DNA from: a virus
Lineage: Duplodnaviria; Heunggongvirae; Uroviricota; Caudoviricetes
Direction: 5' to 3' (one strand)
DNA length: 8,037 nucleotides
Virus record (IMG/VR): IMGVR_UViG_2531839237_000019
Shown: piece by piece, positions 494 through 1,112 of the stretch
Layout of the letters: each line of letters begins with the position of its first letter
Position numbering within the stretch: position 1 is the first letter of the stretch
Made by a program: the position numbers and the translations under genes
Notes under the pieces: generated by a model
What the model was told of the DNA's origin: nothing
The model's input: the letters and a program-made list of their open reading frames with translations, nothing else
Database searches by the model: none

Positions 494-727
494 ATGTTAA
501 AATCAACTCTTATTGCTAAATGCCTTTATCAAAATCGCATGGTAAGCAGCATTTCAATAGGCGAGTCTGCAGTTAAAAGTATTTTCGAAGAGTACTTTCC
601 CGGGCATGATTTTAATAAATGGAATACCAAATTACCGCCAGCAGTTTCAACGCGTATTCTGAAAGCAACCGAAAGAGCAAGTACAATTCGCGTTAACTAT
701 TTCATTAAAGATTTGTGGGATCTTTGA
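494..727 (+). CDS. Hypothetical 77-aa protein, convergent with the leftward operon
   Basis: ATG at 494 is preceded by AGGAGG (484-489). The ORF is AT-rich and has no competing minus-strand ORF; revcomp of 481-704 holds only very short ORFs. Its 3' end overlaps the stop of the 135-aa minus-strand ORF by 23 nt. No recognisable family. Confidence 0.35.
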   Translation: MLKSTLIAKCLYQNRMVSSISIGESAVKSIFEEYFPGHDFNKWNTKLPPAVSTRILKATERASTIRVNYFIKDLWDL

Positions 728-1112
728 TATCCACAGAGCCTAAAGTATGTGCATATGGATGTGCTATTATGCGCCCTCGCAGATTTGCATCATTTTCTAA
801 ATTCACTGAACGAAACAGGGCATCAACAAGGCTCTGTACAATGCAAAGGCAATCGAAGACTGTCGCCGTTTCTGTTTTGATTGATGAAAGAACATGGCCA
901 TTCACGCAAACAGAAATTACCCGTTTATTAACATCGCTTTCCTGCTTTTGATTATCAGAACCATATAGCCCAGAAAAAGCATTGCGCACATTACGAACCA
1001 TATTATCGATGGTTTCTTTTTCTGCGGTACTAAGGTCAAGAGTAGCCAGTTGTGAACGAACTATATTCGATGCCATTTCCTGTAATGGCGTTGGTAAATC
1101 TTTAAATTCCAT
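705..1112 (-). CDS. Hypothetical 135-aa protein in the dicB-type leftward operon
   Basis: ATG at 1112 (minus) with a GAGG about 7 nt upstream, 22 nt after the stop of the preceding 72-aa ORF. AT-richer than the flanking prophage genes. No recognisable family and no TM segment. Confidence 0.5.
   Translation of the reverse strand: MEFKDLPTPLQEMASNIVRSQLATLDLSTAEKETIDNMVRNVRNAFSGLYGSDNQKQESDVNKRVISVCVNGHVLSSIKTETATVFDCLCIVQSLVDALFRSVNLENDANLRGRIIAHPYAHTLGSVDIKDPTNL

Follow-up and report, generated by a model that had tools for sequence, protein, structure and literature searches.

A conserved, mobile pair of convergent, overlapping genes between ydfC and dicF of lambdoid prophages

Introduction

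Morons in the sense of Hendrix and Juhala, of which lambda rexAB, sieB and bor/lom are examples, show a patchy presence and a lower guanine-plus-cytosine (GC) content, lie by the immunity region and are expressed from the repressed prophage. The pair of small genes described here shares these properties, the expression according to published data on one of the two (PMC7618764). It lies in a stretch of 8,037 nucleotides (nt) from a virus of the class Caudoviricetes (IMG/VR record IMGVR_UViG_2531839237_000019), which we call the window and whose source prophage, to judge from the sequence, is Sp9, located at ompW in Escherichia coli O157:H7 Sakai. Positions 481–1114 of the window are a conserved, mobile two-gene accessory cassette of lambdoid prophages, placed in a variable site between ydfC and dicF. 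The genes are ORF77 on the plus strand and ORF135 on the minus strand, two open reading frames (ORFs) named for their lengths in amino acids (aa). Unlike in morons, only one gene of the two lies on the moron strand, the other being part of the early operon, and they overlap tail to tail.

Nun of phage HK022 is a small nucleic-acid-binding protein of a lambdoid prophage, made in lysogeny and encoded beside the repressor. Nun carries an arginine-rich motif, shares its strand with the early-left operon and lacks a paired partner gene, whereas ORF77 has neither such a motif nor homology to Nun. The sieB/esc/sas system of phage P22 was reportedly described by Ranade and Poteete (1993) as a lysogen-expressed early-left gene whose effect an infecting or induced phage evades through an antisense RNA together with a cognate protein. 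Our proposal for the cassette follows the same logic of lysogenic versus lytic growth. SieB, however, is a membrane protein (about 190 aa), Esc is produced from within the sieB gene, and neither is related to the cassette in sequence or fold, whereas the cassette encodes two separate soluble proteins on opposite strands. Neither cassette protein matched SieB in Pfam or PHROGs.

Both cassette genes have been annotated since 2001, ORF77 as ECs1762 and ORF135 as ECs1763, and PGAP names each of them a hypothetical protein. The two genes and the RNA association of ECs1762 were thus previously on record, and the literature treats the genes separately and assigns neither a function. ECs1763 serves as an OI-57 marker in typing arrays for Shiga-toxin-producing E. 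coli (STEC) (PMC4060028), and the DicF paper draws non-conserved genes as white boxes only and does not discuss them (PMC5069750). In the literature that we searched, we found neither the pairing nor its cross-genus conservation described, nor the conserved overlap, the architecture of the site as a hot spot or the reading of the K-12 interval as an orphan leader.

Results

The cassette is absent from K-12 Qin

The cassette consists of the following features.

481–1114: two-gene cassette, a 634-nt block without a counterpart in K-12 Qin, 39.1% GC
494–727, plus strand: ORF77 (ECs1762, NP_309789.1, WP_000920491.1, phrog_10348), 77 aa, from ATG at 494 to TGA at 727
705–1112, minus strand: ORF135 (ECs1763, WP_000394552.1, phrog_1363), 135 aa, from ATG at 1112 to TAA at 705
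705–727: antiparallel overlap of 23 nt, encoding the C-termini of both proteins (..FIKDLWDL and ..IKDPTNL, each followed by its stop codon)
484–489, plus strand: Shine–Dalgarno (SD) sequence AGGAGG of ORF77, the last element of the constant leader

A first-pass annotation of the window, made from the letters alone, had proposed a 77-aa plus-strand and a 135-aa minus-strand ORF whose 3' ends share 23 nt, and these coordinates hold. So does the consensus SD sequence that it assigned to ORF77, which stands 4 nt before the ATG. ORF135 has the SD sequence GAGG 6 nt upstream of its ATG.

The dicBF operon of K-12 Qin (ydfABC-dicF-dicB-ydfD) resembles the window in ydfC (94% nucleotide identity), in a 320-nt spacer (96%) and in having DicF and dicB downstream. 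It differs in having ydfA/ydfB where the window has a 99-aa ORF, and in lacking the cassette. Alignment of the window with K-12 Qin (NC_000913.3) gave a single clean 634-nt gap at alignment columns 247–880, which is exactly window 481–1114. Identity in the flanks is 94% towards ydfC and 96% towards dicF. Both ORFs are therefore missing from K-12, with not even a disrupted copy there. The pair is indeed extra with respect to K-12, as had been proposed, and the alternative that K-12 holds the same sequence with broken ORFs is not what the alignment of the ydfC–dicF interval gave. Both ORFs were also correctly described as richer in AT than their neighbours: the GC content is 36.3% in ORF77 and 39.7% in ORF135, as against 53.0% in the left flank and 48.4% in the right flank. 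The cassette was found in 646 of 5426 complete E. coli genomes (about 1 in 8), and its carriers are mostly Shiga-toxin producers (O157:H7, O145:H28, O55:H7, O121 and O111).

The pairing and the overlap are conserved across genera

In all contexts examined from Dickeya, Serratia and Klebsiella, a gene of 77–79 aa converges on the ORF77 homologue, and the two overlap by exactly 23 nt. This partner gene is homologous to residues 63–135 of ORF135. Of 22 diverse loci, 20 have an intact ORF77 homologue (16 distinct proteins), and each of these 20 has a convergent partner; the overlap is 26 nt in two of them and 23 nt in the others. Metagenomic relatives show this arrangement as well, namely L108, L112 and L119/L121, which belong to a wider family with 25–57% identity to ORF77 and come from DNA of 44–65% GC; L122 and L128 have weaker or broken versions of the pairing. 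Because the overlap encodes conserved C-termini of both proteins (..FIxDLW.. and ..xPxDP..), the dual coding must have persisted for long. Co-occurrence across genera strongly supports the first-pass suggestion of an uncharacterised two-gene module.

Beyond E. coli, the partner comes first in the leftward direction from an S24-type CI repressor. The gap between repressor and partner is 180–320 nt long and carries a good promoter, for example TTGACG, 17 nt, TAAACT in L006. This makes the partner the first early-left product, with ORF77 reading towards the promoter.

Each gene also occurs in the absence of an intact copy of the other. ORF77 is frameshifted beside an intact partner in an E. coli lineage (L014–16, L100) and in Photorhabdus (L019). 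Conversely, ORF77-like genes lie without a partner in non-prophage surroundings at L020, L110, L113, L117, L129 and L136, and because of these solo genes, of which L020 is the one closely examined, the wider ORF77 family is seemingly not confined to prophages. ORF77 appears to be the autonomous member of the pair and the partner the accessory one.

The solo genes are at 2989–3228 in L020 and around 3001–3230 in L110, L113 and L136. The neighbours of the L020 gene resemble a methyl-accepting chemotaxis protein and a glycoside hydrolase, as judged by eye without a family search.

ORF77 is made in the lysogen and belongs to a family of its own

ORF77 matched the profile of phrog_10348, a family of unknown function, over residues 1–77 of 77 (E = 1.1e-47). 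Thirty full-length homologues with 53–96% identity were found in Klebsiella, Dickeya, Xenorhabdus, Salmonella, Morganella, Yersinia and Serratia, those of 77 aa in these genera being 53–72% identical, and a scan of contigs, which gave four loci, added homologues in Proteus and Photorhabdus. The 77-aa homologues share 20 invariant columns, and a profile search gathered 163 clusters at 50% identity, nearly all of about 75 aa. AlphaFold2 gave ORF77 five helices with a predicted local distance difference test score (pLDDT) of 96.8 and a predicted template modelling score (pTM) of 0.86, and the protein is predicted to be a compact, soluble bundle of five helices.

Neither ORF77 nor ORF135 had a significant match in Pfam, NCBIfam or PADLOC, and a Pfam scan of 58 distant ORF77 relatives gave none. 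PADLOC-DB 2.0 (5027 models) returned 0 families at E <= 1 for ORF77, ORF135, YdfC and the 99-aa ORF. PDB sequence profiles matched the ORF77 family and the partner domain at chance level only. A Foldseek search of the PDB with the ORF77 model found no structural neighbour (best E = 4.7), and the sole match in a fold search of BFVD was an uncharacterised homologue. ORF77 showed no likeness in sequence or structure to RNA-binding folds (Hfq, CsrA, ProQ/FinO, KH, S1, Rop and others), and viral contigs scanned with three distant relatives of ORF77 yielded no locus. Both proteins had been called unrecognisable in the first pass; their only matches remain PHROGs families without an assigned function.

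The RNA-associated proteome of uninduced Sakai in MEM-HEPES has been determined by TRAPP (PMC7618764, Nucleic Acids Res. 2025). Native ECs1762 was among the proteins significantly enriched after ultraviolet (UV) crosslinking and had no detectable RNA-binding domain, and a polynucleotide kinase (PNK) assay labelled tagged ECs1762 above background (PMC7618764). ORF77 is thus translated in the lysogen and associated with nucleic acid (PMC7618764). The case considered earlier, that the plus-strand gene has no transcript or translation, does not apply, and full-length homologues in other genera together with the experimental detection of the ORF77 protein (PMC7618764) establish both ORFs as genuine.

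ORF135 is a two-domain protein

ORF135 is divided into two parts, the partner domain having acquired a 60-aa N-terminal domain in the window.

933–1112, minus strand: N-terminal "MEFKDLP" domain, ORF135 residues 1–60, the constant arm, from PHROGs and alignments
708–932, minus strand: partner domain, residues 61–135, phrog_23433, a stand-alone gene of 77–79 aa in other genera

The whole protein matched phrog_1363 (E = 4.8e-47 over residues 1–130) and phrog_23433 matched residues 55–128, both of unknown function, while PHROGs 6937, 2151 and 9419 matched residues 1 to about 65 only. ORF135 is predicted to begin with two helices, followed by a beta-hairpin, a further helix and about 35 tail residues of low confidence. 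For the partner domain, a beta-hairpin, a helix and a conserved low-confidence tail were predicted. The invariant residues of this domain sit in the tail, in the motif LExEANxxG[KR]TxxH (invariant E, A, G and H), and the model suggests that the conserved tail is probably disordered. A protein search with the partner domain alone (word-index search) returned E. coli fragments only.

One prophage, L092 (3215–3685, minus strand), has the partner domain joined to a ClpX zinc finger of the C4 type (Pfam, 34.1 bits; cut-off 27). In L099 (3215–3793, minus strand), which is Yersinia-like, the fusion is with a YdfC-family domain (phrog_1744), and it ties the uncharacterised K-12 protein YdfC functionally to the partner module.

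The ydfC–dicF site of E. coli is a cassette hot spot

Proteins that share about 50 N-terminal residues with ORF135 (MEFKDLP...) and have other C-termini fill the same site in dicB-type prophages, and at the 3' end of each lies a small convergent gene that differs between them. The alternative cargo genes are as follows.

63 aa, phrog_2605, with a 23-nt overlap
27 + 64 aa, phrog_18692
69 aa, phrog_4274 (L103)
73 aa, phrog_7249

The same 320-nt spacer precedes all alternative cargo cassettes. The 63-aa gene, the 73-aa gene and the 27 + 64-aa pair begin directly after the same ...CTCCTTAATTACCAACCCTCAGGAGGGTGAA, and the 69-aa gene of L103 follows a divergent version. The AGGAGG region ...CTCAGGAGGGTGAA also stands before the 63-aa and 73-aa ORFs and before the leading 27-aa ORF of the 27 + 64-aa cassette. 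The site thus has a constant arm on each strand, the N-terminal domain on one and the leader with the SD sequence on the other. The unit that is swapped is the C-terminal domain together with its antisense gene.

The alternative cassettes are located at L011 3001–3775, L102 2501–3140, L103 2501–3337 and L105 2501–3086. A 72-aa ORF with a GTG start at 282–500 (plus strand) in the window was judged probably spurious; it crosses the conserved structured spacer, which K-12 has too. In L105 the gene caller joined the equivalent of this frame to the 73-aa cargo gene, which gave a call of 138 aa.

A structured leader and a candidate promoter precede ORF77

Two features upstream of ORF77 may serve its expression.

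410–493, plus strand: structured 5' leader of three hairpins, kept in K-12 and conserved among cassette variants
377–405, plus strand: candidate sigma-70 promoter of ORF77, TTTTCA (377), 17 nt, TAAACT (400–405), 8/12 consensus

RNA of the plus strand from 410 to 505 has a predicted folding energy of −32.4 kcal/mol (z = −3.16), with none of 200 shuffles as stable, and RNA of the minus strand over the same positions is unremarkable (z = −0.30). The third hairpin of the leader pairs part of the SD sequence and the G of the AUG. The candidate promoter is kept in all six E. coli site variants, including K-12; L011 has TAAACC and L102 an 18-nt spacer. We infer a transcription start at about 411–413, at the foot of the first hairpin. 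Transcription from this promoter would begin about 250 nt from DicF and head away from it.

K-12 retains the leader up to 7 nt before the SD sequence, and then continues with the sequence just downstream of ydfC. The "long untranslated region" of K-12 before dicF thus looks like the orphan leader of an emptied cassette site. Judging from this orphan leader, the event was probably a deletion in K-12 and not an insertion in the window. The first-pass view that the K-12 interval is only non-coding is correct in that neither ORF77 nor ORF135 is there, but the spacer is a conserved leader whose cargo is missing. The segment of K-12 Qin (L002) at 3543–3700 corresponds to window 330–480 and keeps the leader, the hairpins and the candidate promoter.

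Other genera have a different conserved upstream element, which includes an extended −10-like TGnTA(T/C)nCT about 35–40 nt before the ATG and a hairpin with compensatory changes. A non-coding element shared across genera, TTGTGTGCCTG..loop..CAGGC..GGTGGTATCTTGG..CACACAACCAAGAAG, lies about 100 nt upstream of the ORF77 homologue in L004, L008, L017, L088, L092 and others, with compensatory changes in the first hairpin. Rfam gave no family match at the upstream element in 12 related loci. RNAalifold found no convincing consensus structure in the cross-genus upstream alignment, and we therefore make no claim of an RNA motif for the other genera.

The cassette lies in a dicBF operon

The window spans the immunity and early region of a lambdoid prophage, and its minus strand carries the following features around the cassette.

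1989–2396, minus strand: DicA-like helix-turn-helix (HTH) repressor, 135 aa, with a match to HTH_3 (Pfam)
1861–1890, minus strand: promoter-like site TTGACC, 18 nt, TAAATT, from the promoter scan, at the position of the dicB-operon promoter and adjoining the repressor gene
1426–1725, minus strand: 99-aa ORF, ECs5719, phrog_21318, at the position of K-12 ydfA/ydfB
1135–1353, minus strand: ydfC homologue, 72 aa, ECs1764, phrog_1744, from the PGAP annotation, directly upstream of ORF135
109–158, minus strand: copy of the small RNA (sRNA) DicF, Rfam RF00039, 49.4 bits (gathering score 48)

Complete chromosomes of E. coli O157:H7 are 99.3–99.4% identical to the window over 1–1400, and the annotated Sakai Sp9 has the same gene order and gene lengths. 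The equivalents of the Sp9 locus are OI-57 / CP-933O in EDL933 and the PPompW prophages. The operon has the order of a dicBF (Qin-type) operon: a DicA-like repressor, a leftward ydfC, the DicF sRNA and then dicB, which, judged from matching genomes, lies just past the left edge of the window. The 99-aa ORF had no family match outside PHROGs.

ORF135 follows ydfC in this DicA-controlled, dicB-type early-left operon. DicF is downstream of the cassette on the same transcript as ORF135, at a distance of 546 nt from it. ORF77 is antisense to the transcript of the dicB operon, that is, to the DicF precursor, as had been noted in the first pass. The tie between the cassette and DicF is thus one of position only, consisting of the co-transcription of ORF135 with DicF and the antisense orientation of ORF77 to that precursor, and the first-pass suggestion of regulatory consequences for DicF finds no further support.

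Further along the window, a hok/sok-type module occupies 7276–7425 and 7366–7578 (both plus strand; Rfam sok RF01794, 103.9 bits). Within it, a 70-aa ORF contains a hydrophobic segment that resembles Hok as read by eye, and its counterpart in Sakai, ECs1773, is annotated as "phage maintenance protein". A 252-aa ORF at 6329–7087 (plus strand) stands at the Sakai position of the adhesin gene paa/adfO (ECs1772). It resembles a separate moron of the same prophage, because its upstream region at 6101–6300 is very AT-rich (28–30% GC).

Discussion

ORF135 lies in the dicB operon, while native ORF77 is present in the uninduced lysogen, and the two genes therefore appear to be regulated in opposite directions. 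We propose, with a probability of roughly 40%, that the pair is a lysogenic/lytic toggle, in which ORF77 acts in the lysogen and is switched off on induction by convergent transcription and by the partner. In the lysogen, ORF77 would be transcribed from its own weak candidate promoter via the structured leader, against the repressed early operon, and the target of the protein would be RNA, or perhaps nucleic acid in general. Inactivation of the repressor would let transcription that starts at the early promoter cross ORF135 and then run antisense through ORF77. This antisense transcription could lower the expression of ORF77 by collision of polymerases and by pairing of the two RNAs into a duplex. 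The partner domain, being produced simultaneously, would then bind and neutralise the leftover ORF77, putatively through its conserved and probably disordered tail. The possible benefit to the prophage would be the silencing of leaky toxic early transcripts (dicB/dicF) or the exclusion of other phages.

Several points weigh against the toggle. In the PNK assay ECs1762 was overexpressed and tagged (PMC7618764). TRAPP also recovers DNA-binding proteins (PMC7618764), and "RNA-binding" may therefore mean nucleic-acid-binding in the case of ECs1762. A uniformly basic ORF77 family was considered and rejected: the isoelectric points of the homologues range from 4.9 to 9.6, and charge-driven RNA binding is therefore not a property of the whole family. 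The model of ORF135 is poor (pLDDT 46). The promoter of ORF77 is a candidate because its 8/12 match is below the threshold of the promoter/terminator scan, which found no plus-strand promoter above threshold upstream of ORF77 and no terminator for it before 1158. The first-pass suggestion of a moron is affected by these last points; presence/absence polymorphism, deviant GC content and expression in the lysogen (PMC7618764) agree with it, but the promoter match is weak and a terminator was not found. In addition, each gene survives without the other, and therefore neither depends on the other for being tolerated. Linkage of adjacent overlapping genes can also persist through inheritance alone.

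A broader form of the proposal is that ORF77 founds a new family of small nucleic-acid-binding regulators with an unseen fold, which would provide a second, post-transcriptional layer of lysogenic control or phage exclusion across Enterobacterales and beyond, paired with an early-lytic anti-factor and with the overlap as part of the switch. We hold this tentatively and lean towards doubting it. If it were correct, the ydfC–dicF site would be an exchange point for several cognate pairs of a lysogen gene and an early domain.

The cassette might instead be an anti-phage or superinfection-exclusion moron, in which ORF77 made in the lysogen blocks incoming phages via their RNA and the early partner is a self-antidote. 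The logic of an effector with its own antidote is followed by P22 SieB/Esc and BstA/aba. Genes of the rex, sieB and bstA types sit beside the immunity region, and so does the cassette, which in other genera is directly beside cI. The synthesis of ORF77 in the lysogen (PMC7618764) and its low GC content are consistent with exclusion, as is the site itself, which holds at least five unrelated small cargo genes, each with a co-varying opposite-strand C-terminal domain, as at defence hot spots. We nevertheless consider exclusion unlikely, since none of the 5027 PADLOC models matched and ORF77-like genes are found outside prophages too. Exclusion also overlaps with the toggle and differs from it only in the target, foreign RNA in place of the RNA of the prophage itself.

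The strict co-occurrence of the genes and the conserved overlap could also mean that both proteins form one complex, for example a two-subunit regulator, and are not antagonists, the overlap being an inherited layout without regulatory meaning. The tail of the partner, conserved and probably disordered, is of the kind that folds on binding, and the partner also occurs fused with YdfC or with a zinc finger of the ClpX type, which suggests larger assemblies. The genes of such a complex would, however, lie on opposite strands under different control, with ORF135 controlled by the repressor and native ORF77 present without induction. Several lineages have lost ORF77 and kept the partner, and solo ORF77-like genes exist. 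A common complex is therefore quite unlikely in our view.

More improbable still is that the two genes are functionally unrelated neighbours, ORF77 being an independent moron and the overlap persisting since overlapping frames are hard to separate. Each gene can occur without the other, and adjacency gives a shared history regardless of function. This does not agree with the movement of the pair as a unit, which is the first early gene in Serratia, Klebsiella and Dickeya and the third or fourth in E. coli, nor with the joint exchange of C-terminal domain and antisense gene at the E. coli hot spot, nor with the overlap kept in the metagenomic relatives. A toxin–antitoxin-like addiction module, in which one protein is toxic and the other neutralises it, is highly improbable: the cassette shares with Type II systems two small, tightly linked genes, one compact product and one with a conserved disordered tail as is typical of antitoxins, and a pseudogenised ORF77 beside an intact partner is a frequent fate of toxins, but the genes are convergent on opposite strands and not co-transcribed in an operon, no toxin–antitoxin family matched in Pfam, NCBIfam or PADLOC, healthy cells contain native ORF77 without induction while the partner gene is in a repressed operon, arabinose-induced cultures overexpressing ECs1762 still reached an optical density (OD) of 0.8 (PMC7618764), which speaks indirectly against toxicity, and each gene occurs alone, including ORF77-like genes without any partner.

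The carriers of the cassette are mostly Shiga-toxin producers, in which ECs1763 is already a typing marker. With the overlap retained in distant metagenomic relatives, the pair is a clean natural case for how convergent genes are maintained. If the cassette encodes a prophage RNA regulator with its own antagonist, the shape of the "long untranslated region" before K-12 dicF would be explained as a leftover leader. ORF77 could then affect the stability with which the toxic early-left genes dicB and dicF, and the prophage itself, are silenced, and it would represent a new protein family in bacterial post-transcriptional control.

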